From an uncultured Gammaproteobacteria bacterium (GTDB taxonomy: Bacteria; Cyanobacteriota; Vampirovibrionia; LMEP-6097; CAYGPN01): a stretch of DNA of 64,000 nucleotides. The stretch's first letter is position 1. Each line of letters begins with the position of its first letter. Position numbers and translations under genes: made by a program. Location of the stretch: NCBI GenBank assembly GCA_964352085.1, contig CAYGPN010000007.1, positions 27,725 through 91,724 on the forward strand. Direction: 5' to 3'. Below are positions 23,963 through 61,575 of this stretch, in pieces. The notes below the pieces were generated by a model that was not told the origin of the DNA, did no database searches, and worked only from the letters and a program-made list of their open reading frames with translations.

Positions 23963-24099
23963 TTGGATTGCTTCGCTGTCATCACGAGGAGCGTGGCGAC
24001 GTGGTGATCCAAGGATTGCTTCGCTATGCTCGCAATGACAATCGTCAGCTCGCAATGACAATCGTCAGCTCGCAATGACAATCGTCAGCTCGCAATGAC
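23963..24099 (+). repeat. dispersed intergenic repeat element, copy A (GGATTGCTTCGC ... CGCAATGAC family) with 3.5 x 20-bp tandem units
   Basis: ggattgcttcgc + tgtcatcacgaggagcgtggcgacgtggtgatccaa + ggattgcttcgc + (tcgcaatgacaatcgtcagc) x 3.5. It ends at the glnA stop codon. Confidence 0.85.
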
Positions 24100-25458
24100 T
24101 TAGTAAGCGTGAAGATAACTATCTAGTTCCCACTTGCTAACAGCAGCTCGGTAGTCTTGATATTCTCTATGCTTCGTTTCGATGTAGTGCTTAAAGATAT
24201 GCTCGCCTAGAGCTTCTTTAACGATCTTAGATTTTTCCATCTTCTGAAGTGCTTCATTTAAACTTGCTGGAAGAGAGTTAATTTCTCTTTGCTCTAAAGT
24301 TTTCATTTCTAGTTTGTAGATGTTTTCATTAACTTCTTTAGGTGGAGTAATTTTATTTTTAATTCCATCTAAACCAGCTTCTAAAATTACAGCAAAAGCT
24401 AGGTAAGGATTACAGCTAGGGTCTGGAGATCTTAACTCCATGCGAGTACCAATGCCTCTTGTAGCTGGAACTCTCACTAAAGCAGATCTGTTCATTCTTG
24501 ACCAAGCAATATAAACAGGCGCTTCATATCCAGGCACAAGTCTTTTGTAACTGTTTACGATCGGGTTAGTTACAGCACAGAATTCTCTAACGTGTTTTAA
24601 AACACCACCGATGAAGTACATCATAGTTTCAGAAAGACCATCTTCAGCATTCTCATCAAAGAAAACATTATTTCCTTCTAGATCAAAAAGCGACATATTG
24701 CAGTGCATACCATTACCATTGATTCCAGCAATTGGTTTTGGCATGAATGTTGCGTATAAATTAAAAGCATGAGCTATGGCTTTAGTTGCCCATTTGAAAG
24801 TTAGAACATTGTCAGCAGTTTTTAAACACTCTTCGTATTTAAAATCAATCTCGTGTTGAGACTGCGCAACTTCGTGGTGACTAGCTTCGATATGAAAACC
24901 CATATCTTCAAGTGTGTAAACCACCGCTCTTCTAACATCTGCGCCCTCATCAGTAGGCTCAACATCGTAGTAACCACCCTCGTCAATTGTATTTGTAGTA
25001 GGTTTGCCATGCTCGTCGTACTCGAATAAGAAAAATTCAGCCTCAGGACCGACGTTACATTCGTAACCCATTTCAGCAGTTTTTTTAAGAAGACGCTTTA
25101 AATTGTTACGAGGACATCCTTCAAATGGCGTGCCATCAGGGTTATAAATATCACAGATAAGTCTTGCTACAGCACCTTCTTTTGGTCTCCAAGGAAGGAT
25201 TTGAAAAGTACTAAGGTCTGGGTGAAAGTACATATCAGAAGTTTCAATACTTCTAAATCCGCGAATTGAAGAACCATCAAGCATCATTTTGTTATCAAGT
25301 GCTTTTTCAATTTGCTCAACAGGAATAGCCATATTTTTCACGTGACCATGTATGTCGCAAAATTGTAGTCTTATAAATTTCACGTCGTTAGCTTTTGCTA
25401 TGCGTATAATTTCTTCTTTAGTCAGTTTTTCCTTGCTCATAAAGGAATATAATATCAT
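24100..25458 (-). CDS. glnA: glutamine synthetase type I
   Basis: 452 aa with GSI signature regions (e.g. KPIAGINGNGMHCNMSLF). Confidence 0.9.
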   Translation of the reverse strand: MILYSFMSKEKLTKEEIIRIAKANDVKFIRLQFCDIHGHVKNMAIPVEQIEKALDNKMMLDGSSIRGFRSIETSDMYFHPDLSTFQILPWRPKEGAVARLICDIYNPDGTPFEGCPRNNLKRLLKKTAEMGYECNVGPEAEFFLFEYDEHGKPTTNTIDEGGYYDVEPTDEGADVRRAVVYTLEDMGFHIEASHHEVAQSQHEIDFKYEECLKTADNVLTFKWATKAIAHAFNLYATFMPKPIAGINGNGMHCNMSLFDLEGNNVFFDENAEDGLSETMMYFIGGVLKHVREFCAVTNPIVNSYKRLVPGYEAPVYIAWSRMNRSALVRVPATRGIGTRMELRSPDPSCNPYLAFAVILEAGLDGIKNKITPPKEVNENIYKLEMKTLEQREINSLPASLNEALQKMEKSKIVKEALGEHIFKHYIETKHREYQDYRAAVSKWELDSYLHAY

Positions 25459-25532
25459 TCACAATACAGTTTTTATTTACTAATTTATTTGTATGGCTAA
25501 TTACTTAATAGATAATTGGATATACTTATATT

Positions 25533-26303
25533 GTGATTACGAAGCGGATCATTCCATGTTTAGATGTCGACAAAGGTCGTGTGGTTAAAGGCACCCAATT
25601 TGTTGATATAAAAGATGCCGGCGATCCTGTTGAGCTAGCAAAACATTATTACGAGGCTGGAGCTGATGAGATTTGTTTTCTCGATATCACAGCGACTCAT
25701 GAAGGCAGAAGTGCGACTCATGAAATTATAAGAAAAACAGCAAAGCAAGTTTTTATTCCACTTACAGTTGGTGGTGGTGTTAATTCTGTTGATGATGCAA
25801 AAGCACTTTTAGATGCTGGCGCTGATAAAGTGGCTATGAATTCTGGTGCTGTTAAAAACCCGCAGCTTATAAAAGACTGCGCTGAAAGGTTTGGATCTCA
25901 GTGCGTGGTGCTTGCAGTTGATGTGAAAAGAAATGCTGCCAAAGAAGATGAATACAGTTGGCAAGTCTATGTTCGTGGCGGGCGCGAGAATACAGGGCTT
26001 GATGCTATTGAGTGGGTTAAAAAAGCTTACGAGCTTGGTGCGGGTGAAATCCTGCTTACAAGTATGGATAAAGATGGCTCAAAAGATGGTTATGATATAG
26101 AACTTACTAAAAAAATCTGCGAGTCAGTAAATATTCCTGTGATAGCTAGTGGCGGAGCTGGAAGCTCAGAGCATATTGTTGATGCTTTTAAAGCTGGCGC
26201 TGATGCAGCATTGCTCGCTTCTCTGCTGCATTATAAAGAGTTGACTATTGATGAAATTAAAAAAGTGATGATGGAAAATAAAATTGCTACGCGATTAGCT
26301 TAG
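25533..26303 (+). CDS. hisF: imidazole glycerol phosphate synthase cyclase subunit
   Basis: 256 aa with a GTG start. RIIPCLDV...TVGGG...DGYD matches HisF. Confidence 0.9.
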
Positions 26304-26949
26304 TGTCTTCCTTGTTTTCAGTATCTTTGTTTTCTTTTGCTCTTTGGCAAGCTTTTAACTCTTCGTAAAAAATTAAATTAAGATCTTGACGCATATCTTT
26401 AGGTAAAAGGTCTAGAGTTAGTTTCATTAAGCTAGCTATCTCAAAAGGACTTTCTTGTGCGCTCACTCTGCCTGGTGCTAGAAGTACTAATAAGTCTTGA
26501 AGAGATTTTTTGATTTTATCTTTTGTTCCCTCAAGCCCATCTTTATAGCGTAGTTCAGCCACATAAGCATCGTTCTTTGGATGCCTGTCTAAACCAAGGT
26601 CAACTTTTGCGGACCTCACTACTTTTTTAAGCCTCTCAAAAAAACTTAAAGTGTTTTTGGGATCTTTAGAAAAGATCTCTTTAAGAGCTGCAGCTGAATT
26701 TTTATAACTCTCAGAAAGGTACTTTGCGATATAAAATCTTGCGGGTTCATCAAGATCAAAGCTAAGTTGCATGATTATTTGATCATATCTTTCTTTAAAT
26801 TTTGGAGCTACTTTGAATACTTCTTTTTTAGTATCTGTAAGTTTGGGAGTTTTAGTTTCATCAGGAATTCTTCCAAGTAAAGCTCTTGCGGCCAAAGTTA
26901 CTCTTTGACTTATTCCAGCACCGTTATTAGTTTTTATAGATCCAGACAT
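26287..26949 (-). CDS. hypothetical protein (220 aa)
   Basis: Clean ORF downstream of pilC. No recognised domain. Confidence 0.4.
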
Positions 26950-27026
26950 CTTTGTCTTTTCCTTCGTGATTTATAATTTACCACTAAAAATCTAAGCTAA
27001 AAAGTCTTATTAAGCAAATCTAATCC

Positions 27027-28274
27027 CTACTGTATTTGCTTAATGATATTAAAGATAGGTAAGTACATCGCAACAACAACTGAACCTACTAGACCACCAA
27101 GAACCACAATTAGTATTGGCTCCATCATAGATGTCAGCGACTCTACAGCATTGTCTACTTCTGTATCATAGAAATCTGCTACTTTTTCTAGCATTGTTTC
27201 AAGCTCACCAGACTCTTCACCAATTGCAATCATTTGCGTAACCATAGGAGGGAAAATATCTGATTGTTCAAGCTTCGTGCTTAAAGAACCGCCTTCCTCC
27301 ACTTCTTTTCGAACTTCTAAAATTATGCCTTCTAAAATTGCGTTATTCGCAGAATCTTTTACCACATCAAGCGCTGTTATCATAGGCACTCCAGATTGGA
27401 TCAAAGTACCAAAGGTTCTAGCAAATCTAGCAACAGCTACTTTTTTAATAATGTCACCAAATAAAGGTAGCTTAAGTGAGAATCTATCAAGTGTTAGTCT
27501 ACCTTGCTCCGTTTTATACCAATTCTGAACACTTGTAATGGTAAACCATACAGTAGCGATTATCACCAGCATCCAAGGTGATCTAACAATCTCACTTAAA
27601 TTTATAAGAGCTTGAGTGAAGGCAGGAAGCTCGCCGCCAGTACTTTCAAAAATTGCAGAAAATTTAGGAAGAATAAAAGTTAGCATGAACCATAGAACTA
27701 CAACAGCTATTATCACCACCACGAATGGATAAGTCATTGCTGTTTTTACTTTTTGGGTTAGTTTGCTTCTAGATTCAAGAAAGCCTGCTAGTCGATTTAG
27801 AACCTTGTCCAGGACACCACCAGCCTCGCCGGCTTTTACCATCGCTACATAAAGCCTATCAAAGGTTTCAGGATAATTAGCTAGAGATTCAGAGAGAGCT
27901 TTACCTTGCTCGATATCATCTTTAACTTCTGAAAGCATAGTGCCTAATTTTTCGTTTTCTGTTTGATCGATAAGTACAGTGAGTGCACGAAGCATTGCTA
28001 TGCCAGCTTCGATCATCGCAGCAAACTGTCTAGAGAAAATCACCATGTCTCTAAGCGTCACTTTATCTCCACCAAAGAGCTTTTTGCTTCTCTTCTTTTT
28101 TCTACTTCCGGCTTGAGTTGCTGCAGTAGCATCAAGCTTTTGGTTTAAGTTAATTACAGTAAAGCCCTTTTTCTTTAAAGTGAAGCGTGCAATATGAATA
28201 TTTTTAGCCACTATTTCTCCATGCAAAGTTTTACCTTTGGTGTTTTTTGCAAGATAGCTGAATTTATTTGGCAT
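27027..28274 (-). CDS. pilC: type II secretion system F / type IV pilus assembly platform protein (PilC/GspF family)
   Basis: 415 aa. Two GspF-type repeats with the conserved polytopic membrane pattern (GIAMLRAL...GEESGELETML). Confidence 0.8.
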   Translation of the reverse strand: MPNKFSYLAKNTKGKTLHGEIVAKNIHIARFTLKKKGFTVINLNQKLDATAATQAGSRKKKRSKKLFGGDKVTLRDMVIFSRQFAAMIEAGIAMLRALTVLIDQTENEKLGTMLSEVKDDIEQGKALSESLANYPETFDRLYVAMVKAGEAGGVLDKVLNRLAGFLESRSKLTQKVKTAMTYPFVVVIIAVVVLWFMLTFILPKFSAIFESTGGELPAFTQALINLSEIVRSPWMLVIIATVWFTITSVQNWYKTEQGRLTLDRFSLKLPLFGDIIKKVAVARFARTFGTLIQSGVPMITALDVVKDSANNAILEGIILEVRKEVEEGGSLSTKLEQSDIFPPMVTQMIAIGEESGELETMLEKVADFYDTEVDNAVESLTSMMEPILIVVLGGLVGSVVVAMYLPIFNIIKQIQ

Positions 28275-28319
28275 TAACTAAACAAGCACACAAGAAGCGC
28301 TTATTCTAGTATTTCATAC

Positions 28320-29414
28320 CTATTGCTTTAGCTCAAGAACAAATCTGCCCTTAGCTAAACCGCTACTTGTAAATTCATTAAATTGACCTTTAAGTACTGC
28401 TTTTTTAGGGTTTCTAGATCTGATTAGAGTTACAGATCTTGGAGCGACATCAAAAGAAACACCGTTGCTTAGATCTCTTATGTTAAGAGTACCTATGCTA
28501 TTTAGGCTAGTAGAACCATCAATGCTATTAACTTTATTGGCTAGAGCACTCAATAGGCGTGGAAGTTTTCTAACTCTCATAGTGTAGTTTCCAATATTGT
28601 TGATTGAAATTCCACCACTAATAACACTACCAACACTATTCGTTACAATTTTGCTGATAGATGATCTAGCTTTTTCGAAACTGAAAATACTGCTGTTATC
28701 ATTAGCACCTTTTAGTTTTATCTTTTTAATGCTCTCTAAAGTCCCTGTACCTCTATATATAGATAATAATGATCCTGTTAGTTGAGGCTCAAAGCTTTTA
28801 GGAGCTAATAAATATAAAGCACCTGTAACTGAAGGTAAGAATATTGATTGAACAGAGTTGCTTAAAGTAAGGCTAGTTTTTATCTTGTTTAACAGACCTG
28901 TACTAGGTTTAGACCCTCTTGCTGTTAAAGCTTTTAGCTTATTAGTTTTTTTAGCTTTAGCTTTTTTCTTCTTCTGCTTTAGCTTCTTGGCTTTCTTCTT
29001 TGATACCTTAAAAGTTTTGTTGATGTCTTTAACAAAGCTAGCTTGAGGGCTAAGCTTAACCTTCGTTTTCTTCAATTCGGAAGTCTTCAAAGAACTAAGC
29101 TCAGCTTTTTTCTTTGTCTTCTTTGCTGTTTTCGGCTTTGTGTTTTCCTTAACTGTTTTTTTAGCTTGGCTAGCTTTTTTAAGCTGCTTAGCAGTTGGCT
29201 TAACTTTCACTGCTTTTTTGACCTTAGCTTTCTTCGCTTTTTTTGGATCAAATTTCTTAGCCCTTTTAGCTTTTAAAGCTTTCTTGTCAACTTTCTTAAG
29301 AGATTTAACAAGCTTAACTTTCGCTGTATCTTGCGCCTCATTTTTTGCAATAGCAGGTGTTGCAGTTAGGACCAAGATTGTAGAAGTAATTATATTTAGT
29401 AATTTTGTTTTCAT
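28320..29414 (-). CDS. secreted Lys/Ala-rich (histone H1-like, low-complexity) protein with a C-terminal globular domain
   Basis: 364 aa. Signal peptide MKTKLLNIITSTILVLTATPAIA. Residues 25-180 are about 40% Lys (KKAKKAKVKKAVKVKP...). The C-terminal 190 aa are non-repetitive. Confidence 0.5.
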   Translation of the reverse strand: MKTKLLNIITSTILVLTATPAIAKNEAQDTAKVKLVKSLKKVDKKALKAKRAKKFDPKKAKKAKVKKAVKVKPTAKQLKKASQAKKTVKENTKPKTAKKTKKKAELSSLKTSELKKTKVKLSPQASFVKDINKTFKVSKKKAKKLKQKKKKAKAKKTNKLKALTARGSKPSTGLLNKIKTSLTLSNSVQSIFLPSVTGALYLLAPKSFEPQLTGSLLSIYRGTGTLESIKKIKLKGANDNSSIFSFEKARSSISKIVTNSVGSVISGGISINNIGNYTMRVRKLPRLLSALANKVNSIDGSTSLNSIGTLNIRDLSNGVSFDVAPRSVTLIRSRNPKKAVLKGQFNEFTSSGLAKGRFVLELKQ

Positions 29415-29426
29415 TGTTATAACCTC

Positions 29427-32400
29427 TTATTTTTTACCTTTTAAGTTGACTAAGATGGAACCTTCTATTCGGTTTCCTGTCTCGACCTCAGTGAATATAA
29501 TCGGTACGGTTACCGTATTGTTCACTGAATCAAAGGCATCGCCTAAAGCATCTACGCTCTCTAAGAATTTTTTGCGGCTTTTAAGAACCACTTTAACCTT
29601 GCGAGCTTTTTTCTTCTTGCTATTAAGCTTGAATGGACTAGAAGGTTTGATTCTTACTAGATTTGCAAATAGTTCAGTAGTACTTGCTTGCACCGTTGTA
29701 ACTTTCTTTTCATTGTCTTCGCTATTGTTGAATTGAACTTTTAAGTTAACAGCTTTCTTTTTCTTTGCTTTAAGTTTTTTGACTTCTTTTAAAGTAGTTC
29801 CATCATCAGTAGTTCCGCCAATATCAAAAGTGGTTTTACCACCTGGATCTGAAGGTTCGCTAGGATCAGGTCCACCTGTAGTCGTAGCCTCTCTTACCGA
29901 GATGCTTTGGCTGCTAACGTTCTGCAAGCCACCAGCATCTGTAACAGTTAAGCTAACAGTTTTGCTTCCAGCACTTGTAAAAGTAAAGCTTGCTTGAGCT
30001 GTCGCCGCATCAAAAATTCCATCACCATCAAAGTCCCACTGAAATGATGTAACAGCTAGATCATCTGTGCTTGAGCTTCCATCAAAGCTAACAGCCGTAT
30101 TTTCAATTGGGCTAGTTGGACTAAAAGTAAAGCTGGCTACAGGAGCTTGGTTTGGAGGAGGAGCTGGTGGTGCTGGAGGAGCAGGAGCAGGAGGTGTTGG
30201 TGGAGGATTGCTCACTAGCACGCTCATTGAAATTACGCTTTGCTTTCCGCCATCATCAGTTACCCTTAAAAGAACATTATTAGTGCCAGCACTAGTATAA
30301 GTATTAGTTACTTGAGCGCCAGTAGCATCAAAAGTTCTATCACCATCAAAGTCCCATTCGTAAGTAGTTATGGTCCCATCATCTGTACTTAAGGATCCAT
30401 CAAAACTAACTTGTTGATTAGTTACTGGGCTTGCAGGATTAAAGCTAAATAAAGCTGTTGGAGCTAAGTTGTCAGGAGTAAACACTGTTTCAAATGTGTA
30501 ATTCTCTGGACTTAAAGAACTTGTGCTAAATGGACTTACTTGAATAAAGAAAGTAGTAGCACCAGCTTGGTTAGTTAACTCTAGTGATGCATTTAAACCT
30601 GAGCCACTATCATCATCTTGAGCTAATAAAGTTCCATTGGCGTCAAATACTGAAATAAGAGTATCTGCGCTTCCAGTAGTTCTAAATGTTATAGAACCAG
30701 CTTCAGAAAGTGTTGTTGTAAAGAAATCAAGATCAGCACCTGTCTCAAAAGTATTTAGAGCAGAGCTGTTATTAGCTACGCTAGTAGCGTTTGCTATGGA
30801 GTCGCCGTGATCGTCAGCAAGTAGTGATGTCATGAATGTGTAAGCTCCAAGATCAAATGGATTAAATCCAGTTACACTAGCCTCATAAGTAGTACCTGCT
30901 GTCACAGGAATAATTAAGCCGGCATTTTCTTCATTTGCACTATCATCATTTTCGCCAATTTGATTTAAATTTGAATCAAAAAGTCTAATGAATGTATCAG
31001 TGCTTCCTTCTGTGAACACAGTAAGAGCACCGTTTTGATTAGGCGTAAAAGTAAACCTATCATCATCAAGTCTTGTTTCAAGAATTCCGGCATCGGAAGT
31101 CTCGCCAGCTACTTGACTAGGAGTTACAGTTGTTGGGCTAACAGCTGGGTGATCATCATTTACTTGCTGAGTGTCAGGTGTAAATGTGGTTTTAACAGCA
31201 TATTGACCTACTAGACCATCAAAGTCTGAGAATAATTCAAGATAGTAAGTACCTGGGTTTAATGGTCTCTGGAATTTGAAATTAAATTTATCACCAAGGG
31301 GTTCTTCAAATGCAGAATCAAAAGCTGAGCCATTACTGTCTAATAAGAACATGTTGATTGCAGCATTTCCAAAAGACTCTGCTACAAAAATACCAGGCTC
31401 TGTGATAACGAATCTTAAAACATCGATATCAAACTCCTCCATTTCCTCTTTATAAGTTTCTCCCAAAGTAAGTAATGTAGTGGTTGAGATGTCTGCAGCT
31501 GAATCTGGATTAGGGGCAATACCATTGCTATCAAATTGAAGATCTAAAGTATAAACACCTTGATCGTCAGCTGAGAAACCACTAACACTTACAAAATAAA
31601 TACCTGATGGAAGATTAAGTGCAAGGTTAGCGTTTAAGTCTGTGCCAAGCTCGTCATCGTCATTAGTTCCTAGGCTGAGACCATTCGCATCAAAAATTTC
31701 TATGAAAGTATCAGTTGAACCAGTAGTTAATGCTGTCAGTGCACCAGCTTGAGCTAGCGTAACTGAGAAGAAATCAAAATCTTGATTGTTATTTATATTT
31801 CCATTAAATTGACTTCCCGTGCTTGCAATAGTTGCTTCAGCATTAGAGTTGCCGTGATCATCCGCTATAAAGGATGATGATAAAGAATAAGGTCCAGTAA
31901 CGAAATCACCAAAACCACCAACATCTATATAGTATGTGCCAGCAGGCAGTGATAAGCCACTAATATTGAAATTCAAAGATGGACCATCATCGTCATTATT
32001 AATAATAATGTTGCCGTTACTGTCTCTAAGTCTTCCAAGAGTATCAGTTCCACCTGAAGTCTCTAATTCTAAGTAACCTCTACTAGGCAAGATGATTTGG
32101 AAAACATCTCTATCACCAGAACTTTCTAGAAAACCATTTACAAATAAATCAATGCCATTAGTGTGATCTAAGATTGTTGCTGATGGGCTAGTGAAAACAC
32201 TACCATGGTCATCAGTTAAGCCATTCGTGAAAGCAGGCTGTATATTGTAAAAGCCAGTGCTAGTTAATGAATTACCAAGAACGGTTAGTATGTAGGTCCC
32301 GGCACTTACTGCTGTAGTTCGATTGTTCGCACTGGAGCCTACATTAGTGTCTAGGATGTTGTTGTCATTAGGGTCATCTAAAATCAATCTTAAGCCTGCT

Positions 32401-39578: not shown

Positions 39579-39587
39579 TTGGCTTAA

Positions 39588-41009: not shown

Positions 41010-42044
41010 TTATTTCCAGGCTAAGCCTTTAAGCTCAGAAATGTTTTTGATATCCATATCTTTAAGCTTTACTTGTAGCTCTTTAATAATATCTGGACAA
41101 GCATATGGGTTGATGAAATTCTCTGTGCCAATAGCAACTGCGCTAGCTCCTGCTAAGAAAAACTCTATAACATCATCAGCGCATGTGATTCCGCCCATCC
41201 CTATGATAGGAATATTTAGCTTCCTGCTCACTTCATAAATCATGCGAATCGCTACTGGTTTAATTGCTGGTCCTGAAAGACCGCCTGAGCCTCTAGCTAG
41301 AATTGGTTTTCTGCTATTAAGATCTATGCGCATACCAAGCAAAGTGTTAATTAGGCTAAGTCCATCAGCACCAGCTTTCTCTACAGCCACTGCCATCGAT
41401 ACTATATCTGTAATATTTGGTGAGAGTTTTACAAAGAGTGGCGTGTTCGCGCAAACTTTTTTGACTTCTCTAGTTAGCTCAGAAGCTAGCTCTTCGCTAG
41501 CACCAAAAAGAGTCGCGCCATCTTTAACGTTTGGGCATGAGATATTAAGTTCTAAGCCAGCTACGTTTTTCACTTTGGAAAGTTCACGTGCAACAGTCAC
41601 GTAATCTTCTATAGTAGAACCTGCGATATTAACTATGATCGGTGTATTTGTTTCTGATTCAAGCCATTTAAGATCTTCGTTGATTACTTTTTCTAGACCT
41701 GGATTCTGCAAACCAATAGAATTAAGCATTCCGCCAGGGGTTTCAGCAACACGTGGTGTGTCATTGCCTGAGCGCTCTTCAAGTGATGTGGCTTTAACTG
41801 CTATTGCACCAAGCTCGTTAAGATCATAAAATTTTGCGTACTCTCTGCCAAAACCAAAACAACCAGATGCTGGCATGATTGGGTTTTTCATTTTAATTCC
41901 ACAGATTTCTATTTCTAGTTTTGGGTCAATGATAATATTGCTTTTGTCATCACGAGAAGCAGGGCGATGTGGTGATCCATGGATTGCTACGCCTGCGGCT
42001 CGCAATGACGAGTTGTCGGTTCGCAATGATGGCTTGGTGTTCAT
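41010..42044 (-). CDS. pyrD: dihydroorotate dehydrogenase class 1B catalytic subunit; N-terminal 51 codons derive from a repeat element, so the true start may be the internal ATG at 41891
   Basis: The protein from [15 protein letters not shown] onward matches PyrD-1B. Upstream in-frame codons ([33 protein letters not shown]...) are encoded by repeat copy B. ATG at 42044 overlaps the pyrK stop (ATGA). Confidence 0.85.
41945..42030 (+). repeat. dispersed repeat element, copy B
   Basis: gtcatcacgagaagcagggcgatgtggtgatccatggattgctacgc + (tcgcaatgac N11) x 2. It is about 87% identical to the 5' module of copy A. Confidence 0.8.
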
Positions 42045-43051: not shown

Positions 43052-43702
43052 ATGAGTTTCCAAATCAGACCACTTAGAGGCTTTTTAGCGATTTTTGGAC
43101 TAGCAGTTTTAGCAGTAATTTTGCTGCAGATGCAACCTTATGAAGTAGCCAAGCCAATTATAAAAGAGCACGGTCCTATAGAAACAGCATCTGTTTTTAT
43201 CTACATCGCAGCTGGCTCTATGGCGATTTACCTTGCGATGAAAAATCATTGGGAGCGCGCGCTGATGGCAGCTCTATTTATTTTTCTTATGGGCGCGCGT
43301 GAGCTAGATGCTCACGTAAAGTTCACCTCTATGAACTTTGCTAAAACTAGATTTTTTATAAGCCCAAAGGTCCCAATGATAGAGAAAGTTTGGGTGACGA
43401 TATTTTTAATAGCTTTAGTGGCTGGGCTTTATTACTTTGCTAAAATTCATTGGAAAAATTTCGTGATAGCAATGAAAGAAGGAAGATCTTATGTCTACAC
43501 AATGGTTTTAGCAATTGGCTTTGTGCCACTTTCTAAAATCTTAGATAGTCTTCCTAAAGCACTTCGAGATCATTTCCACATCCCAGTTACTGATGAGCTT
43601 AGACTCTTTACAGGAATCTTTGAAGAAGTTATGGAGTTAATGATTCCAGCACTTTTCCTTTTGGCTATGATTCAGTTTCTTAGATATAAGTCAAAGAGAT
43701 AG
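43052..43702 (+). CDS. hypothetical polytopic membrane protein (216 aa)
   Basis: About 6 predicted TM helices. No recognised family. Confidence 0.45.
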   Translation: MSFQIRPLRGFLAIFGLAVLAVILLQMQPYEVAKPIIKEHGPIETASVFIYIAAGSMAIYLAMKNHWERALMAALFIFLMGARELDAHVKFTSMNFAKTRFFISPKVPMIEKVWVTIFLIALVAGLYYFAKIHWKNFVIAMKEGRSYVYTMVLAIGFVPLSKILDSLPKALRDHFHIPVTDELRLFTGIFEEVMELMIPALFLLAMIQFLRYKSKR

Positions 43703-43705: not shown

Positions 43706-43796
43706 ATGGATTGCTTCGCCAGTAGGCTCGCAATGACGACTATGCTCGCAATGACGACTAAGCTCGCAATGACGACTAAGCTCGCAATGACAGCTA
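43706..43796 (+). repeat. dispersed repeat element, copy C, with 4 x 18-bp tandem units
   Basis: tggattgcttcgcc agtagg (gctcgcaatgacgactaa) x 4. The last unit overlaps the carB stop codon. Confidence 0.85.
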
Positions 43797-46700
43797 GACT
43801 GCTAGCTCTTCTTTCTTTTTAGTTTTTTCAGGCAATGCTTCAACAGAAAAAGCAATAGTCTCTAGTGCTTTTAAAAGTGCGTGCGCAGTATCAAGTGATG
43901 TTATGCAAATAGCACCTTTTTCTACAGCCTCTCGTCTGAGCTTGAAGCCATCTGAGCTTGAAGCTTTGCCTTTTGTGATTGTGTTTATGATTAAATCTGC
44001 TTCACCATTTTTAATTACATCCATAATATTTGGTTCGCCCTCTTCAAGTTTCGCAATTTTTTTAACTTGAATACCATTTGCAGCAAGCATATCTGCTGTG
44101 CCTGAAGTTGCCAGCATTTTAAAACCTAGATCGTTATATCTTTTTAGAATTTTAAGCGCGTATTCCTTATCTTTATCAGCAACCGTCGCTAAGATGGTTC
44201 CACTATGAGGGATTTTCATGCCAGCAGCTATCAGAGCTTTGTAAAGTGCTTTATCAAAAGATCTATCTTTGCCCATCACTTCGCCAGTTGATTTCATCTC
44301 TGGACCAAGCGCTACTTCTACAAGATCCAATTTAGCAAAAGAGAAAACAGGAGCTTTTACTGAAACCATTTCACTTTCTGGATGATAACCAGCTTTAAGA
44401 TCATGTTTCTCGAGTAAAGATTCTAGGCTCTCACCTAGAATGACCTTAGTAGCAATATTTGCCATAGGCACATCAGTGACCTTACTTAAGAAGGGTACAG
44501 TACGTGATGATCTAGGGTTTACCTCGATTACATAAACTTGATTTTGAGAAATAACAAATTGAATATTTATGAGTCCTCTAGTGTCTAGTGCAAGCGCTAC
44601 TTTTTCTGTTATGTTAATAACCTCTTCTTTAATATGCTCGTAGATAGTCTGTGGAGGGTAAACAGCGATTGAATCACCTGAGTGCACGCCCGCTCTTTCT
44701 ATATGCTCCATGATTCCAGGTATGATTACGGTTTTTCCATCAGAGATTGCATCTACGTCCATCTCGCGTCCAATCATATAGCGATCAATTAGTACTGGAT
44801 GCTCTGGATTAACTTTTACAGCAGCTTGCATGTAAGTTAAAAGCTCGTCTTTATTGTAAACAATCTCCATCGCTCTACCACCTAGTACATAAGAAGGTCT
44901 AACTACTACAGGGAAACCCAGTTCGTCAGTAGCTTTAACGGCTTCATCCACTGAAGTGACAGTTGTGCCAAGAGGCTGCGCTACATAAAGTTCTTTAAGA
45001 AGCTCTTCGAATTTCTTGCGGTTCTCTGCTCTATCTATATTCTCTAAAGATGTACCTAAGATCTTAATGCCTCTGTCAGCTAGTGGCTTAGCTAGATTGA
45101 TAGCTGTTTGCCCGCCGAACTGCACAATAACTCCAATAGGATTTTCTTTTTCAATAACATTCATCACGTCTTCTATAAAGAGCGGCTCGAAATATAACCT
45201 GTCTGAAATACTAAAGTCTGTAGAAACTGTCTCAGGGTTGTTGTTTATAATTACAGCCTCGTAACCTGCTTCTTGAATGGCTCTTACTGCATGAACAGTC
45301 GCGTAATCAAACTCAATACCCTGACCAATACGAATAGGACCTGAGCCCAGTACTAGCACTTTCTCTTTAAGAGATTTGGTGACCTCGTCTTCATCCTCAT
45401 AAGTTGAGTAGTAGTAAGGGGTAGCAGCTTCAAATTCAGCAGCACAAGTATCTACCATCTTAAAAGTAGGGACTATGTGGTTCTGTAGTCTAAACTCTCT
45501 AACTTTCTCTTCGGTAAATTCTTCTTTGCCACTATCTTTCTTAAGTGCCGCAATAATATAGTCAGTGAAACCTGCTCTTTTAGCATCATATAGAAGCTCA
45601 GGACTTAGAGGTTCTTCTTTGATTTGCTGCTCCATATTAATTATGTTTTGTAGTTTGTTTAAAAACCATTTGTCTATTTGCGACCAGGCATGAATTTCAT
45701 CTATTGTAATTCCACGACGAAGAGCATCAGCAACTAAGAAAATTCTCTCATCATCAGCTCGTCTGATTCTTTCTTCAAGCTCATAATTATCGATTTTATC
45801 TGAGCCAGGAAGCGCTAGGTGCACTAAATCTATCTCAAGTGAGCGAACAGCTTTTAAAATAGACTCTTCAAAAGTCCTGCCAATAGCCATGACCTCTCCA
45901 GTCGCTTTCATCTGTGTTCCCAGTCTACGATTAGCTTTAACAAATTTATCAAAAGGCCATCTAGGGATTTTAGAAACTATGTAGTCTAGAGCCGGCTCGA
46001 AACTCGCATACGATTTTTTTGTAACGGGGTTTTGTAGTTCATCAAGCGTGTAACCAATAGCAATCTTTGCTGCCATCTTCGCTATCGGGTAACCAGTGGC
46101 TTTAGACGCTAGAGCACTAGATCTACTAACACGAGGGTTTACTTCAATTACGTAATATTTAAAACTATGCGGGTCAAGCGCGTATTGTACATTACAGCCA
46201 CCTTCTATTCCTAGCTCACGAATGATTTTAAGAGAAGAAGATCTCAGCATTTGGTATTCTTGATCAGCTAAAGTTTGGCTGGGAGCTACTACAATACTAT
46301 CTCCAGTGTGCACGCCAACTGGATCGAAGTTTTCCATATTACAAACAACAATGCAGTTATCGTTTTTATCGCGCATTACTTCGTATTCTATTTCTTTAAA
46401 ACCTGCGATGCTGCGCTCTACAAGACACTGATTGATGGGGCTTTGCTTAAGACCCGAAGTCAGTACTTCTTTTAACTCTTCTTCATTACTAGCAATTCCA
46501 CCACCAGAACCACCAAGTGTGTAAGCTGGTCTAACAATAAGTGGGTAGCCTATTTCGCTCGCAAAAACTAAAGCTTCTTCTATCTCGTTTACAATAACGC
46601 TTTCAGGAATTGGCTCAGCAATTTCATGCATGAGTGATCTGAACTCTTCTCTATCTTCAGCTTTTATAATACTTCTAAGTTTTGTACCTAGAAGTTCTAC

Positions 46701-51372: not shown

Positions 51373-51400
51373 TGGATTGCTTCGCTGCGATCGCAATGAC
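51373..51400 (+). repeat. dispersed repeat element, copy D (single unit)
   Basis: ggATTGCttcgctgcgatcGCAATgac: a hairpin with a 5-bp ATTGC/GCAAT stem. Confidence 0.75.
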
Positions 51401-51463
51401 GTTAAAAGCAAAAAAAGAGCAGCTTTGCCAGCTGCCCTTTTATAGTAAGTTAATTCATTTGAA

Positions 51464-54919: not shown

Positions 54920-54983
54920 TATTTAAGCAATAGAGTACAGACTAATCGTATAATTAAATTGGTAATTACACCAAGGTTGAAAT

Positions 54984-56525: not shown

Positions 56526-56531
56526 ATGGGT

Positions 56532-56711: not shown

Positions 56712-57301
56712 TCTTTCTCTCCTCTTTGGTAAGTGAATAAAACGGCGACCAAGAGCTTTTGCTCAAATTTGTTTTATTCTTTCTAGGTTAAGTTGGTTTT
56801 GATTCGGTTTCTTCGAATTCAGGTCTAGTCTTATGCATCAAGTTTCTTTCGCCTGAGAAAATCAACTTGGAAAAAATCCTTTCGGATTTGATGTTGGTCC
56901 TTTCGGACACATGCAATGCTTCCTTGCTTTGTTCTATTAACATTATCACTATGCCAGCTACTTGGCTACCCGTATTTCTATATATTTCCTATATTATTTA
57001 TTTTTTGTTTATAATTCAATGAGTTTTCTTTCATTTATTTTTTTAACTTGTTGATAGTAAAGGAATCTCAGTGATGTGTAATTGTAAATTGGTTTTCGTT
57101 TCTTATTTTGAATTAATATTAGACCGTGTGAAAAATAATCGTATTAACTATTTTGGAAGCGGTATTTATTTGAGGAGTGATAGCCTTGCGTGATTTTTTT
57201 AGCTTTATTTCCTTCACTTGAATAAAGCAAAGCGGGCACCGAAAGTGAATACCGCTTCCGAAACCAAGTACTAAGCATTATTTTAGTTATACTGTTAACC
57301 A

Positions 57302-58675
57302 GTGATTAAAACAGTTGTACTAGCGGCAGGCAAAGGCACTCGCCTTAAATCAAAAACACCAAAGGTCTTGCACAGAGTCTTTGATAAGCCGGTTTTGTAT
57401 TGGGTGCTTGATGCGCTTGCTGAAATTCCACAAGATGAAATTATAGTTGTTAGTGGTTATAAATCTGATGACGTTGAAGCTTTTCTTCACGCTTATCCTG
57501 TAACTATGGCTAAGCAAGAATCTCAGTTGGGGACAGGTGATGCACTCAAGAGTGCGGCGGCGGCAATTGGTGATGATTTTGAAGGAACGGTTTTAGTAAT
57601 TAACGGTGATTGTCCTTTAATAAAAGCAGAAACTATAAACTCACTTTTAGATCAACATAAAAAATCTAGAGCTGAAGTGACTTTGCTTACTTGTAGTGTT
57701 TGGAATCCTGGTTCTATGGGGCGCATTGTTAGGCGCAACGATAATATTATTGCAATTCAAGAAGCGAAAGATTGCTCAGAAGCTGAGTCAGCAATTAACG
57801 AAGTTAATGCTGGCGTTTATGCTTTTGATTGGCTTGCTATTAAAGATGGTTTAAAAGCACTTAGAAGTAACAACGCACAAGAAGAATATTATTTAACTGA
57901 TTTAGTTGCTTGGGCTTATAGTCAAGGTTACAAAATTTCTAATTTTAAAACTGAAGATGAGCTAGAGATTTTAGGTGTTAATAATCGTAATGATTTAGCT
58001 AAAGTTGCAGCGATTAAAAATAAAAATACCATTGAAGAACTTCAAGCAAATGGAGTTACCATAATAGATCCAAGCAATACTTACATCTCTCCAGATGTAG
58101 ATATCGATGCTGATACTGTAATTTATCCAGGTACTTATATCCAAAGAAGAGTTGTGATAGGTAAAGGCTGTGAGATTGGACCTAACACTTCGATTTTCGG
58201 TCCAGCTGAAATTGGAAGTGGCTCTACAGTGATTCAGTCTCATATCTTTAGAAGTAGTATTGGTGAGAACTGTTCTGTTGGACCTTTTGCGCATATTAGA
58301 GATGGTAGTGATATTACTGATAATGTAAGAATTGGAAACTTCGTTGAAGTGAAAAATTGTGAGATTGGTGATGGCACTGCTGCAGCGCACCTTAGCTATC
58401 TTGGTGATAGTCAAATAAAATCAAATGTAAACATTGGTGCTGGAACGATTACCGCTAATTATAATTCTCGTACTGGTGAGAAAAACCAAACAGTGATTAA
58501 GAAAGGCGCAAGTACTGGATCAAATTCTGTTTTAGTAGCTCCAGTGGAAATTGGTGAAGGCAGTATGGTAGCTGCTGGAACTGTGGTCACAAATGACGTG
58601 CCGGATCACAGCCTCGCTATAGCGCGCCCTAAGCAAGAAATAAAAGAGCTAAAAAAGAAAGCTGCAGCTAAGTAA
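57302..58675 (+). CDS. glmU: bifunctional UDP-N-acetylglucosamine pyrophosphorylase / glucosamine-1-phosphate N-acetyltransferase
   Basis: 457 aa with a GTG start. N-terminal LAAGKGTRL nucleotidyltransferase motif and C-terminal left-handed beta-helix hexapeptide repeats. Confidence 0.9.
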   Translation: MIKTVVLAAGKGTRLKSKTPKVLHRVFDKPVLYWVLDALAEIPQDEIIVVSGYKSDDVEAFLHAYPVTMAKQESQLGTGDALKSAAAAIGDDFEGTVLVINGDCPLIKAETINSLLDQHKKSRAEVTLLTCSVWNPGSMGRIVRRNDNIIAIQEAKDCSEAESAINEVNAGVYAFDWLAIKDGLKALRSNNAQEEYYLTDLVAWAYSQGYKISNFKTEDELEILGVNNRNDLAKVAAIKNKNTIEELQANGVTIIDPSNTYISPDVDIDADTVIYPGTYIQRRVVIGKGCEIGPNTSIFGPAEIGSGSTVIQSHIFRSSIGENCSVGPFAHIRDGSDITDNVRIGNFVEVKNCEIGDGTAAAHLSYLGDSQIKSNVNIGAGTITANYNSRTGEKNQTVIKKGASTGSNSVLVAPVEIGEGSMVAAGTVVTNDVPDHSLAIARPKQEIKELKKKAAAK

Positions 58676-58743
58676 AAAGTATATTATTATCTTAATTGAG
58701 GAAGCTCAAGTAGTTTAGCTATTTGGGTTTATGAGGAGCTTAA

Positions 58744-59697
58744 ATGATAGATAGAAAAATTGTATTCGATTTACCAATTTCTAATTCTTTCCATGCTTTA
58801 AATGCATGGGAAAGATTTTCACAAGAATTAGCTCAAGCGCATTGGATAATAATTAATGGTCAGAAAATAAATATACGCACTAAAGAAGACAATGCTAACT
58901 ATGAAGCAGGTTTAGTTAAAACGAAAGAAGAATTTTTAAATAAAGGTCACGAAGTAAGAGCCTTATTGACTAAAGTTGACAAAATGGATCGAGGGAGAGA
59001 GTTTGCTTCGAAGCCGGGTCTTATGAAAGAGACTGATCTTCGTAAATCTGCTAAAAGAAAATTCCTAACTGAAGCTTTTGCTAAACTCTCTGGTTTCACT
59101 AAATTTCTAACTGCAAAATATAAAGAGATAAGAGATCATCTGCCGGAAGAAGGATTTAGGACTATTGACTCTATAAAACAACGCATTAAGACTTTTACAG
59201 ATTTTAAAACAGAAGTCTTAACGGGGATTTTGCCTATAAGAGCTCATGCTGAAGCTGGATACTTAGTTGTGGGGGCTGATAAAGCAGCCAAGCCAATTTT
59301 AGAGGGGGTTTTATTTGCTATGCTCCGCGATGTTTACCCAGAGTTTCATGATCAGCGAAGGTTCAAAGGAAGTCTGGAGGACGCGCAAAAGACTTTTGCT
59401 GAGCGCAAAGCATCAATTGGTTTTGAAAAGATGAGTAAATCTATAGGTGGAGCGGTTTTGTATTTAGCTATGGATTTGAAGGATGATTGGAATAAAATTG
59501 ATCAAGATGATCGTTACAGCTCTGCTGGAAATTATTTGGAAAAATATTTTTTAAATGATAAAGGCGATGATGCAGAATCAAACTTTAGTTTGCTTACTAA
59601 TAAACAAATAAAAATGCTAATAAGAGTTTTTAGAAATGATTTTACAAAAGAAGAGTTTCAAAAGATTTTCTATAGCCCGGAATTTTCAGTAAACTAA
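58744..59697 (+). CDS. hypothetical protein (317 aa)
   Basis: Clean ORF with no recognised domain. Confidence 0.4.
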   Translation: MIDRKIVFDLPISNSFHALNAWERFSQELAQAHWIIINGQKINIRTKEDNANYEAGLVKTKEEFLNKGHEVRALLTKVDKMDRGREFASKPGLMKETDLRKSAKRKFLTEAFAKLSGFTKFLTAKYKEIRDHLPEEGFRTIDSIKQRIKTFTDFKTEVLTGILPIRAHAEAGYLVVGADKAAKPILEGVLFAMLRDVYPEFHDQRRFKGSLEDAQKTFAERKASIGFEKMSKSIGGAVLYLAMDLKDDWNKIDQDDRYSSAGNYLEKYFLNDKGDDAESNFSLLTNKQIKMLIRVFRNDFTKEEFQKIFYSPEFSVN

Positions 59698-59701
59698 GTT
59701 G

Positions 59702-59797
59702 TGGATTGCTTCGGCTTTGCCTCGCAATGACGGTTTGGATTGCTTCACTACGTTCACAATGACGGTTTGGATTGCTTCACTACGTTCACAATGACGG
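59702..59797 (+). repeat. dispersed repeat element, copy E: whole 32-bp element tandemly triplicated
   Basis: tggattgcttcggctttgcctcgcaatgacgg followed by (tttggattgcttcactacgttcacaatgacgg) x 2. Confidence 0.85.
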
Positions 59798-59802
59798 TTT
59801 TT

Positions 59803-60096
59803 TTAAGACCAAACATCTAAAATATCGCCACAGAAAGCTGATTCTAGAAAACTAAATATACCGCCCCAGCCAAGTGTTTCTAAAGCTAGTTTTGATCTGC
59901 GTTTGTCTTTTAAAAGTTTGCGTGAGATTTTCTTTCTCAGTTCAAAGTAGTTAACCTTAAGGTCTTTAAGGTCACTAACAATATTAGGTAAGCTTTTTTG
60001 AAAGTTTTTTACTCTTTCTGAAAAGTCTTTTATCTGCGCATTGTTTTCCATGCGCGCAGCTAATTGTTCACCAAGATTAATAAGTAAGTTTGCCAT
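59803..60096 (-). CDS. hypothetical protein (97 aa)
   Basis: ORF only; predicted helical. Confidence 0.35.
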   Translation of the reverse strand: MANLLINLGEQLAARMENNAQIKDFSERVKNFQKSLPNIVSDLKDLKVNYFELRKKISRKLLKDKRRSKLALETLGWGGIFSFLESAFCGDILDVWS

Positions 60097-60147
60097 ACAT
60101 AGCTACAAAGTAGGGTTCTAGGGCTATTTGATATGAATTTTGGATAA

Positions 60148-60663
60148 TTATGCAGTAGGCGAAAGAGTCTCGTTTTGGTACTTTCTAAGGTTTGCTGCTA
60201 GAACATTGTTGTTTTTCTCTTTTAAAGAGCCAAATGCCCTGTATTCAGGCACTTCTGGGTCTGATTTCCAGAGATGAGAACTACGGTCTGGGTCAAATCG
60301 CTTGAAATAGTCATCATCAAGCTCAGACATTGGGAAATCGCGTGCTGGTGGTGGGCTTAATTTGTTATTAAAGACCCATTTGTCCCAGTCATCATTCTCA
60401 TCGGAATCACGCTCAGAGCTTGTGTTTTCGAGTTTATCTTCGAATTCATTTAGCTCATTTTCGAATTCATCAAGATCAAGAAGATCCTCCTTCTCCTCGT
60501 CCTCGCCATTCTCAAAATCAGTAATTTCGCCTTCTAGATAAGGGTCTATTGAGTCCTTTACTTTTTGACGTAGATCTTTAAATTTTGATGTGAGCTTTCC
60601 ATCAGTCTTTTCAGCTCTTTCAATTTCGTTTTCAAGCTCGTTATCTATTGATTCTATTGCCAT
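60148..60663 (-). CDS. hypothetical highly acidic protein (171 aa)
   Basis: Asp/Glu-rich low-complexity ORF (DLLDLDEFENELNEFEDKLEN). Confidence 0.4.
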   Translation of the reverse strand: MAIESIDNELENEIERAEKTDGKLTSKFKDLRQKVKDSIDPYLEGEITDFENGEDEEKEDLLDLDEFENELNEFEDKLENTSSERDSDENDDWDKWVFNNKLSPPPARDFPMSELDDDYFKRFDPDRSSHLWKSDPEVPEYRAFGSLKEKNNNVLAANLRKYQNETLSPTA

Positions 60664-60910
60664 TTATCTGTCCTTACTTATTTGAACATTTACTATTTTA
60701 GAATAAGTAATACCTGTTTGTCAAGCTCTTTTTTACTAATTTAGGTCTATTTTCTGGTCTATCTAGTCTAATTCCACCTGAATTCCTAAAAAATTCTGGA
60801 AGACTCGGCTTTTTTCAGGTCTCTTTATATGAACTATATTATAATCTTCAATTGCAAGTCAAGGATTTTAGGTAATGTTACCCATAATTTATGACAAGCC
60901 GTTCGTTTTT

Positions 60911-60987
60911 CGGGATGTGGCTCAGTTTGGTAGAGCGCTTCGCTTGGGACGAAGAGGTCCCAGGTTCAAATCCTGGTATCCCGACCA
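60911..60987 (+). tRNA. tRNA-Pro (anticodon TGG)
   Basis: cgggatgtggctcagtttggtagagcgcttcgcttgggacgaagaggtcccaggttcaaatcctggtatcccgacca is 77 nt and folds as a cloverleaf, with anticodon loop cttggga. Confidence 0.88.
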
Positions 60988-60994
60988 TTAACGA

Positions 60995-61030
60995 AAAAAA
61001 AGGACCCCCAAGGGTCCTTTTTTATTGAAA
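60995..61030. terminator. bidirectional intrinsic terminator (tRNA-Pro on plus, nuoA on minus)
   Basis: aaaaaaaAAGGACCCccaaGGGTCCTTttttatt: an 8-bp GC-rich stem with a 4-nt loop, flanked by an A-run and a T-run. Confidence 0.65.
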
Positions 61031-61046
61031 AATTTTATTTAGAAAA

Positions 61047-61430
61047 TTAGACTTCTTGATTCCAATTTAGAGCACCTTTACGCCATGCGTAAGCAAGACC
61101 CACAAAAAGAATTCCAACAAATACAAATGTCTCAGCGATGATAAAGCCTCTAGTCCCCGCCTCAAGCGTGTTGTAAAGGTTTGCCCAAGGCATTAAGAAT
61201 ACAAACTCAACATCAAAAATAATAAATAGAATAGCGAACAAGTAGTATTTAATATCGAACTGAACTCTACTCTCCATTTCAATTGGCATACCGCACTCGT
61301 AGACTTCGTTTTTCACGCCACCAGGATTACTGATTCCAAAAACTTTTTGAAGAAATAAACTGAGTGCAAGCAGAATCACACCATTAACCAGTGCAAGAGC
61401 TACTATTAAACCTATTTGACCTGCTGCCAT
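61047..61430 (-). CDS. nuoA: NADH-quinone oxidoreductase subunit A
   Basis: 127 aa with 3 TM. YECGMPIEMESRVQFDIKYYLFAILFIIFDVEFVFLMPWA matches the NuoA/ND3 signature. Confidence 0.85.
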   Translation of the reverse strand: MAAGQIGLIVALALVNGVILLALSLFLQKVFGISNPGGVKNEVYECGMPIEMESRVQFDIKYYLFAILFIIFDVEFVFLMPWANLYNTLEAGTRGFIIAETFVFVGILFVGLAYAWRKGALNWNQEV

Positions 61431-61499
61431 ACAAATAGATTATATATTAAAAATATCTACTATGCATAAAAGCTTCTGTGCCTTTAGTTGATTTTTCTA

Positions 61500-61575
61500 G
61501 CTTGCTTCACCTTCGCTTCGCAATGACAAGCTTGTGCTTCGCAATGACAAGCTTGTGCTTCGCAATGTCAATATT
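61500..61575 (+). repeat. dispersed repeat element, copy F, with 3 x 21-bp tandem units
   Basis: tagcttgcttcacc + (ttcgcttcgcaatgacaagcttgtgc) units. The last unit is degenerate (cgcaatgtcaatattcg). Confidence 0.8.

Follow-up and report, generated by a model that had tools for sequence, protein, structure and literature searches.

Repetitive extragenic palindromes (REPs) are among the commonest non-coding repeats of bacteria. One superfamily of them, described by Di Nocera, De Gregorio and Rocco (2013, BMC Genomics 14:522; PMC3733652) and including the dRS3 elements of Neisseria and RPE-4 and RPE-6 of Rickettsia, is recognized by an unpaired CGTC (or TGTC or CCTC) tag at one end of the palindrome, and its four published families, CGTC-1 to CGTC-4, have a perfect stem of 8–9 bp closed by a loop of 4–5 nt. 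The subject of this analysis is a family of short hairpin repeats that occupies six loci (A to F) in a 64,000-nucleotide stretch of DNA, hereafter the window (contig CAYGPN010000007.1, positions 27,725 to 91,724, assembly GCA_964352085.1), from an organism deposited as an uncultured Gammaproteobacteria bacterium and placed by GTDB in the Vampirovibrionia. Our reading, to which we assign a probability of about 0.65, is that the six loci are REP-type elements that belong by their features to the CGTC-tagged superfamily and that probably act as single-stranded DNA in replication. We know of no mobilising enzyme for that superfamily.

The motif TCGCAATGAC, with at most one mismatch allowed, occurs 18 times in the window against 2.3 expected, none of 100 shuffled sequences reaches 18, and 17 of the 18 matches lie on the plus strand, all inside the six loci. 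A sequence-only reading of the same DNA had described six REP-like loci, each assembled from a left and a right half-site. Each copy was found where it had been placed when the sequence was read at every locus, GGATTGCTTCGC was recovered at the places given, and the observation of six repeat loci is confirmed, as is their description as a REP-like dispersed hairpin repeat. Both half-sites are present, not as separate elements but as the two halves of one unit of 27–30 nt on the minus strand.

Read on that strand, the unit consists of (C/T)GTC-ATTGC-GA, an apical stem-loop that is usually GC-GNA-GC, and GA-A-GCAAT-CC(A), with GTCATTGCGAG and CTCGCAATGAC as its ends. This one grammar was common to 232 units and, in a later and larger collection, to 572; among the 232, GTC is preceded by C in 171 and by T in 45, and the 3′ tail is CCA in about 78%. 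Every unit has an outer stem of either ATTGC/GCAAT or ATCAC/GTGAT. The second form, found in the inverted unit of loci A and B (GTCATCACGAG...GTGGTGATCC), replaces the first by two compensatory double changes, which means that the 5-bp stem of each arm is conserved as a structure. The same is true further in: when the conserved 5′ GA and 3′ GA-N were trimmed from the 572 units, 226 distinct cores were left, 82% of which close with at least two nested Watson–Crick pairs, and the mean number of apical pairs was 3.05, as against 0.41 in shuffled cores (largest shuffle mean 0.57). More than 35 different apical stem sequences are in use, and in the commonest apex, GC-GNA-GC, every base occurs at N (loops GAA 122, GCA 58, GGA 27, GTA 25), while long forms carry a second layer, GA-G-GA-...-GA-C-GA. 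All units of the window fit this grammar, with compensatory apical stems GCC/GGC at loci B and C and AC/GT at locus E, where the last two units also have a T·G pair in the outer stem.

The flanking 5′-GA/3′-AG positions are able to form tandem sheared G·A pairs. The complementary strand would instead have C·T and T·C mismatches and a pyrimidine loop, and the hairpin therefore belongs to one strand, the purine-rich, hairpin-forming one, which we call forward. At locus A the minus strand folds with z = -3.65 and the plus strand with z = -1.6 only. The sequence-only reading had noted that ATTGC and GCAAT can pair; they do, and this understates the structure, in that the stem runs on through tandem G·A pairs to an apex closed by G-C pairs, on the minus strand alone. 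Such a one-strand hairpin is under structural selection, and it gives each copy a readable polarity. Its commonest apex is exactly GCGNAGC, in which N may be any base. This is a motif of the mini-hairpin DNAs d(GCGNAGC) and d(GCGAAAGC) of Hirao and colleagues, which have been described in isolation, by biophysics, rather than at the heart of a dispersed repeat. In a review, the GCGNAGC mini-hairpin is reported to have a Tm of 76.5 °C, to withstand 7 M urea and to be more stable as DNA than as RNA, and such motifs are placed at phage single-strand replication origins (PMC13037366).

Compared with the CGTC-tagged superfamily, the likeness is extensive. The window units have an unpaired tag of the right kind at one palindrome end (CGTC in the complete unit of B, the internal units of C, and D and E; TGTC inside the arrays of A and F; AGTC at the junction of locus A with the glnA stop), a stem beginning with A-T/T-A, and a short unpaired tail that is mostly CCA. 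Head-to-head dimers with outward tags are common to both, with published spacers of 20–100 bp and about 20 nt between the viral units described below. In both, copies are sited between unidirectional or convergent genes, some copies lie in frame within genes (as do RPE-4 and RPE-6), no flanking transposase is seen (here among window ORFs of at least 100 aa and 150 neighbours of viral units), and the hosts come from several phyla, alphaproteobacteria being well represented. Units of the classical CGTC-1 and CGTC-3 families are present in the same viral contigs as the family described here.

There are also differences. Grouped and head-to-tail forms are rare among the published CGTC REPs, whereas head-to-tail arrays and polar arrays of half-units are common here. 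The unit here also has, in place of the perfect stem and 4–5 nt loop, five Watson–Crick pairs, two G·A pairs, at least two further Watson–Crick pairs, a 3-nt GNA loop and a bulged A, and for this reason the window repeat is not one of the four published families; the authors themselves allowed that bulged forms may have escaped them (PMC3733652). The pattern ATTGCGAG...GAAGCAAT is absent from the text and supplements of that paper, as is the term "lagging strand" from the paper, and searches of full-text literature (text, not figures) with the DNA motifs and the encoded peptides returned unrelated primer matches or nothing. The repeat is a variant within a known kind of REP, and its best match is the CGTC-tagged superfamily.

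The GTAG REPs, with the bacterial interspersed mosaic elements (BIMEs) and REPINs, share a short imperfect palindrome with a conserved 5′ tetranucleotide, the occurrence of singlets, inverted doublets and tandem clusters, a proposed single-stranded hairpin biology and, in Pseudomonas fluorescens SBW25, tandem REP arrays oriented by replichore (PMC3116915). They differ in the tag, which is GT[AG]G there and (C/T)GTC here, and in their REP-associated tyrosine transposase (RAYT), of which none was seen in the 64-kb window or beside units elsewhere; REPINs are, moreover, lineage-specific and vertically inherited, while the present unit is nearly identical across phyla and phages. With the Rickettsia palindromic elements the family shares a behaviour, frame-preserving insertion into conserved genes (the N-terminus of PyrD in the window, an internal loop of PyrD in a genome described below), and not sequence membership: sequence and hosts differ, and one of the six window loci is genic. 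Integron attC sites are imperfect palindromes with conserved ends and a variable centre, act as a folded single strand, and are co-oriented within an array with a replication strand preference. In conserved palindrome ends, variable centre, co-orientation and strand preference the units resemble them, and the comparison was rejected because RYYYAAC/GTTRRRY boxes are lacking, there is no integrase in the window, and the units flank housekeeping genes rather than cassettes. A CRISPR array, taken as repeats of 23–50 nt, unique spacers of 25–50 nt and cas genes, was likewise rejected, the repeats here being 11–13 nt and the spacers 6–9 nt and identical within an array, with no cas genes; an iteron reading failed on its defining features.

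The sequence-only reading had taken the family to be specific to its lineage, and this did not hold. An exact pattern of 22 specified bases matches at least 120 stretches in IMG/VR, a second pattern for the long form matches 113, and overall the unit is present in more than 200 viral contigs of that database as well as in plasmids, prophages and metagenome-assembled genomes (MAGs) of other phyla. BLAST recovered full dimers on plasmids and chromids of the alphaproteobacteria Novosphingobium, Methylosinus and Methylobacterium, and it placed units in prophages of Helicobacter canis, one of which (BK070053.1) holds 18 of them in 45 kb; MAGs that carry the labels Chitinispirillales, Actinomycetes and Humimicrobiia contain further units. 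Outside the window the canonical arrangement is two inverted units, their GTC tags facing outward, separated by a variable spacer of roughly 20 nt; singlets also occur (126 dimer units against 114 single units at the viral loci). The 27-nt arms are nearly identical across genomes of 29% to 70% GC. Only the variant arm ATCAC/GTGAT seems private to the window's lineage, with three chance-like matches in viral contigs.

The closest genomes found by PyrD are MAGs at 67–69% identity with a different gene order, and none of them has a complete unit in the 20 kb of each that was covered, so that unit abundance varies by lineage, as it does for other REPs; the sequence L125 has none of the half-site patterns and L124 one isolated short-pattern match that is not unit-like. 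The unit has been dispersed to unrelated sites, coding sequence included. As to what dispersed it, no transposase or Y1/HUH domain was found in the window ORFs of at least 100 aa (overlapping shadow ORFs excepted), and no transposase among the 150 neighbours of viral units, whose commonest Pfam families are phage structural and helix-turn-helix ones. The sequence-only reading had also named a miniature inverted-repeat transposable element (MITE) as a possibility, which we reject: neither the six window loci nor the viral dimers have a flanking direct duplication, and no parent insertion sequence or transposase was found.

Several further observations concern these other genomes. The H. canis prophage carries many dimers in both arrangements, with long covarying apical stems and a 3′ GTG replacing GAA. 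REPs of the classical CGTC type (GTCATCCCGGCGAAGGCCGGGATCC, GTCATCGCCCGGCTTGACCGGGCGATCC and others) share contigs with the ATTGCGAG family in L014 (1204–8842), L016 (2225) and L064 (1437). In the phage contigs L010 (3338–12744), L118 (5445–8707) and L092 (2561–8942), successive genes each have a unit immediately 5′ of their ribosome-binding site, as part of an intergenic module that is itself repeated (one example being …CAATCT-catgatcgaaggag-ATG), and L092 has an array of five units head-to-tail.

It is the orientation of the units that points to replication. In the window the skew of G over C at third codon positions (GC3 skew), measured on the plus strand, is +0.198 in plus-strand genes and +0.183 in minus-strand genes, and since it is similar for genes on both strands the plus strand is G-rich regardless of coding direction. 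G-richness of this kind usually marks the leading strand. At all six loci the forward strand is the minus strand, opposite the G-rich one; by itself this agreement, with a chance of 1/32, is weak support for our reading, and orientation was therefore tested on the viral loci. There, counting sites of a single orientation with unrelated flanks, pairs within contigs have the same orientation in 70 cases and the opposite in 21, and 44 of 61 adjacent pairs agree (permutation p < 5e-5; 41 multi-site contigs); outside a large component of contigs sharing phage proteins, 10 of 11 pairs agree. The forward strand has a mean GC3 skew of -0.098 at the viral loci (86 negative, 34 positive), the direction being the same as in the window: the forward strand is the C-rich strand. 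The coding strand has a GC skew of -0.001 at loci with sense units and of +0.102 at those with antisense units. Relative to genes, viral single units are about equally often sense and antisense (a split of 23/21 in one count, 27 antisense and 24 sense in another), with some contigs sense throughout (L004, L118, L216) and others antisense throughout (L010, L050, L179). Orientation is tied to strand composition and not to transcription, and it appears to follow the direction of DNA replication, which suggests a replication-linked process on single-stranded DNA. The sequence-only reading had preferred a DNA-level over an RNA-level account of the orientation, and the GC3 skew of the window and the co-orientation of viral units free of a sense bias bear this out. 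A separate observation is that, with the plus strand leading by GC3, 30 of the 51 window genes (rpsA, glnA, carAB and the pyr genes among them) are nonetheless on the other strand, a head-on excess that is unusual for a 64-kb stretch.

These data bear on the possibility that the repeat is instead an RNA-level element, a 3′-end mRNA stabiliser, processing site or terminator whose orientation simply mirrors the minus-strand genes it follows. The window by itself would encourage this account. At every locus the forward strand is sense to the upstream minus-strand gene, it begins 0–8 nt past the stops of glnA, carB and lnt, and all loci lie between unidirectional genes (A, B, D and F) or convergent ones (C and E), as Di Nocera et al. 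describe for REPs; read on the minus strand, the long dimer has G·U where it mismatches. In RNA, too, tandem G·A pairs are stable. Yet viral single units are as often antisense as sense while sharing one orientation among themselves, and with no preference relative to the upstream gene in viral loci a simple 3′-UTR reading was set aside. Within the window, locus D falls after a terminator-like hairpin of rpsA (51441–51413) and before a promoter-like site upstream of pyrB, and locus E, which starts 5 nt past the stop of a plus-strand gene, runs antisense to that gene. As RNA, a unit has a predicted energy of just about -5 kcal/mol, and no Rfam family matches: the window yields three tRNAs only, with no repeat match at gathering score, and a permissive search with the canonical dimer gives generic microRNA-hairpin matches below threshold only. 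We regard an RNA element as an unlikely explanation of the family. Transcribed sense copies may additionally serve as 3′ mRNA structures, a possible and secondary role that would leave the orientation data unexplained.

A second line of evidence is the internal order of the tandem arrays. In the window, the TRF program finds arrays of period 20 (24028–24099), 18 (43726–43791), 32 (59725–59800) and 21 (61515–61571), with identities of 97–100%, in agreement with the unit sizes reported in the sequence-only reading. That reading's description of them, a right half-site repeated with a spacer, fits loci A, B, C and F, where the repeated element is the 5′ half of one unit, and not locus E, where complete units are repeated. 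A half-unit is a 5′ half of the GTCATTGCGAGC type plus, in the window, a spacer of 6–9 nt. Two 5′ halves spaced by 5–14 nt are found in 35 viral stretches. All 50 distinct arrays, those of the window included, have the same build, between one and four 5′ half-units and then a single complete unit, and the reverse order, a complete unit before half-units, does not occur among them. The half-unit arrays are strictly polar. Their periods range from 16 to 27 nt, and the spacers are identical inside an array and unrelated between arrays. Many of the viral spacers are rich in C and T, those of A and F make a short palindrome together with the GTCA tag that follows, and no convincing source of the half-unit spacers was found.

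It could be argued that all this is neutral debris: the decaying remnants of an old invasion, with arrays made by ordinary slippage and a coincidental orientation. The chance of the 6/6 agreement is, after all, not smaller than 1/32, the units at B, E and F are degenerate, an array identity of 97–100% fits recent slippage, and it has been proposed that CGTC REPs are dying out for want of an enzyme (PMC3733652). We think this improbable, given that co-orientation recurs in the 41 multi-site contigs and follows GC3 skew, that slippage does not predict 5′ halves followed by a single complete unit in 50 of 50 arrays, and that the near-identity of the 27-nt arms at such different GC contents argues for continuing constraint or spread. 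That the unit is instead a binding site, with GTCATTGCGAG as an operator- or iteron-like target of a protein of the nucleoid, of replication or of a phage, and with the half-unit arrays acting cooperatively, is very improbable: the half-site is indeed directly repeated at 16–27 nt, always beside a complete unit, phage-contig units often stand just 5′ of ribosome-binding sites, and Escherichia coli REPs bind integration host factor, gyrase and Pol I (reviewed in PMC6006769), but the periods show no helical phasing, the covariation of the apical stem points to folding and not to duplex recognition, one DNA-binding protein common to such diverse hosts is not expected, and no candidate gene was found among the 150 viral neighbours.

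In the replication-linked reading that we prefer, the full hairpin would be within reach of the purine-rich strand alone, by way of tandem sheared G·A pairs and the GNA triloop, and the element most likely works as DNA that the replication fork leaves single-stranded. Two routes to the strand bias are then conceivable. New copies may arise or be inserted on a single template strand, in the manner of IS200/IS605-like HUH enzymes; under the rules of IS608, the substrate would be the pyrimidine strand on the lagging-strand template. Alternatively, selection may remove copies whose stable hairpin sits on the lagging-strand template, which would leave the hairpin strand on the nascent lagging strand and could also feed the arrays. 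Hairpins on the nascent lagging strand favour expansions, as is known from work on triplet repeats. The half-unit arrays are probably footprints of copying, whether by nicking, extension and resealing at the GTC tag or by slippage at a nascent-strand hairpin; for BIMEs, a rolling-circle-like, nick-and-extend model of amplification has been proposed (PMC3333891).

A number of points weigh against this reading. The perfect stem and 4–5 nt loop of CGTC-1 to CGTC-4 are not found in the unit. Its single-unit nearest-neighbour energies are small, -2.7 to -5 kcal/mol, under standard folding parameters that model G·A and mini-hairpin motifs poorly, and the extra stability claimed for it would come from the literature on the isolated mini-hairpin. 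The forward strand, if it is the active one, lies on the leading-strand template, the opposite of IS608, so the insertion-bias version then requires a pyrimidine-strand substrate. No enzyme has been identified for the repeat in the window ORFs and viral neighbours scanned, and its mobility is suggested by dispersed copies with unrelated flanks and by absence from relatives only 67–69% identical. As for orientation, the window shows one replichore only, the singlets of the H. canis prophage are of mixed orientation, the viral gene calls are crude ORF picks, and the viral contigs belong in part to related phages, with some units in repeated modules adjacent to ribosome-binding sites, such that the co-orientation and skew statistics overstate independence.

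A more specific version can be offered tentatively: that this is an undescribed, cross-phylum, phage-borne REP family with a non-Watson–Crick hairpin, which would spread without a transposase of its own by a replication-coupled process on single-stranded DNA, leaving orientation and arrays as its footprints. The footprints might come from a nick at the GTC tag followed by short strand-displacement synthesis and resealing, or from hairpin slippage on Okazaki fragments. If this were true, it would offer a handle on how transposase-less CGTC REPs, dRS3 and RPE-4/RPE-6 included, propagate. What the family adds to the known REPs is a unit that is near base-exact across phyla, GC contents and phages, a polarity that tracks strand composition and not transcription, and a strictly polar half-unit array.

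The units of the window are listed in Table 1. They occur as singlets, as inverted dimers with outward tags (A and B), as head-to-tail arrays (E) and as polar half-unit arrays (A, B, C and F). The insert that the sequence-only reading described as 36 bp long and shared by A and B is present, as two 33-nt sequences that mismatch at 4 of 33 positions (88% identity), and is in fact a second unit in inverted orientation. At locus A it stands tail-to-tail with the main unit, the tags facing outward, and the spacers of the A and B dimers are 0–2 nt. The uniform orientation that had been reported therefore holds for the main, ATTGC-type unit, whereas A and B contain units of both orientations. The half-units of locus A begin directly after the glnA stop (24100–24102), locus C fills the gap between the convergent stops at 43700–43702 and 43794–43796 (the latter carB), and locus F lies between the lnt stop (61578–61580) and the nuoA start (61430). 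Directly after locus C, at 43792–43807, the plus strand has a terminator-like hairpin and T-run (AGCTAGACTGCTAGCT CTTCTTTCTT) that overlaps the last carB codons and could terminate the convergent 216-aa gene.

Table 1. Repeat units, half-units and the pyrD frame that contains locus B, in positions of the window
Locus	Feature	Position	Strand	Remark
A	Orphan 3′ half GCGAAGCAATCC	23965..23976	-	Beyond the inverted unit
A	Inverted variant unit GTCATCACGAGGAGCGTGGCGACGTGGTGATCC	23978..24010	+	Stem ATCAC/GTGAT; the insert previously described
A	Complete unit GTCATTGCGAGCATAGCGAAGCAATCC	24013..24039	-	Apical GC-ATA-GC; fits the family grammar
A	Three identical 20-nt 5′ half-units (GTCATTGCGAGC+TGACGATT)	24040..24099	-	Upstream of the complete unit on the minus strand
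B	pyrD ORF, 344 aa	41010..42044	-	Locus B encodes ~29 codons, residues ~6–34
B	Inverted variant unit GTCATCACGAGAAGCAGGGCGATGTGGTGATCC	41946..41978	+	Translated as part of PyrD
B	Complete unit GTCATTGCGAGCCGCAGGCGTAGCAATCC	41981..42009	-	Apical GCC-GCA-GGC; within the pyrD ORF
B	One degenerate 5′ half-unit (ATCATTGCGAACC+GACAACTC)	42010..42030	-	Within the pyrD ORF
C	Complete unit GTCATTGCGAGCCTACTGGCGAAGCAATCC	43708..43737	-	Apical GCC-TACT-GGC
C	Three 18-nt 5′ half-units	43738..43791	-	
D	Single unit CGTCATTGCGATCGCAGCGAAGCAATCC	51374..51401	-	
E	Three complete units head-to-tail	59703-59731, 59737-59763, 59769-59795	-	
F	Decayed complete unit GTCATTGCGAAGCGAAGGTGAAGCAAGC	61500..61527	-	
F	Two 21-nt 5′ half-units (GTCATTGCGAAGC+ACAAGCTT)	61528..61569	-	

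Copies had been said to abut stop codons or start regions, which is right for the stops of glnA and carB; copy B is not merely near the start of pyrD, it sits inside the reading frame. The dihydroorotate dehydrogenase profile starts at residue 42 of this PyrD. The ATG at 42044, which shares bases with the pyrK stop and stands 7 nt past a strong Shine–Dalgarno sequence, AGGAGG, is the only in-frame start upstream of the repeat units, and the other in-frame ATG, GTG or TTG codons before the conserved domain amount to two TTG, both inside the units themselves. At this N-terminus, the one site compared between the window and its relatives, the latter pass from the start codon to the conserved GIKMKNPIM in 13–18 residues, without the 29 codons, and the 344-aa ORF is called in four independent assemblies. 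A tags-inward dimer in frame in the middle of pyrD in a Chitinispirillales MAG (L163, 10397–10459; …NLSGLLRRFAPRNDRHCERSEAIQIID…) is another case, independent of the first, of insertion into a gene of this family. A unit is open in five of its six reading frames, which explains the tolerance of in-frame insertion, and the translated units have no match in Pfam.

There are practical consequences. Units of this kind break short-read assemblies and give rise to spurious small ORFs and N-terminal extensions, as in pyrD, and their arrays are candidate typing markers. In Logan contigs of the same population (ERR3534977-80; L001–L003 and L284–L286), the contigs stop within about 30 nt of entering arrays A and C, so the repeats do fragment assemblies of this organism.

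Apart from this repeat family, the window has three further features of note. A tandem repeat of period 33 lies within the ORF of a 737-aa C39-like peptidase (6486–6564), and one of period 24 (GGAGCAGGAGCA…) within that of a 1443-aa PKD/PPC-domain protein (30154–30205). At 14647–16582, a 91-aa ORF with a signal peptide and a tandem Cys motif (…GGDKSCKGDHDCKGDHDCKGDHDCKGDKSCKG), the repeat being seen in the DNA at 14827–14919, stands directly upstream of an enzyme of the MbnB/TglH/ChrH family (14943–15857), which is followed by a DUF2063 protein (15857–16582). This looks like a cluster for a ribosomally synthesised and post-translationally modified peptide, of the multinuclear non-haem iron oxidase type, whose precursor contains repeats.

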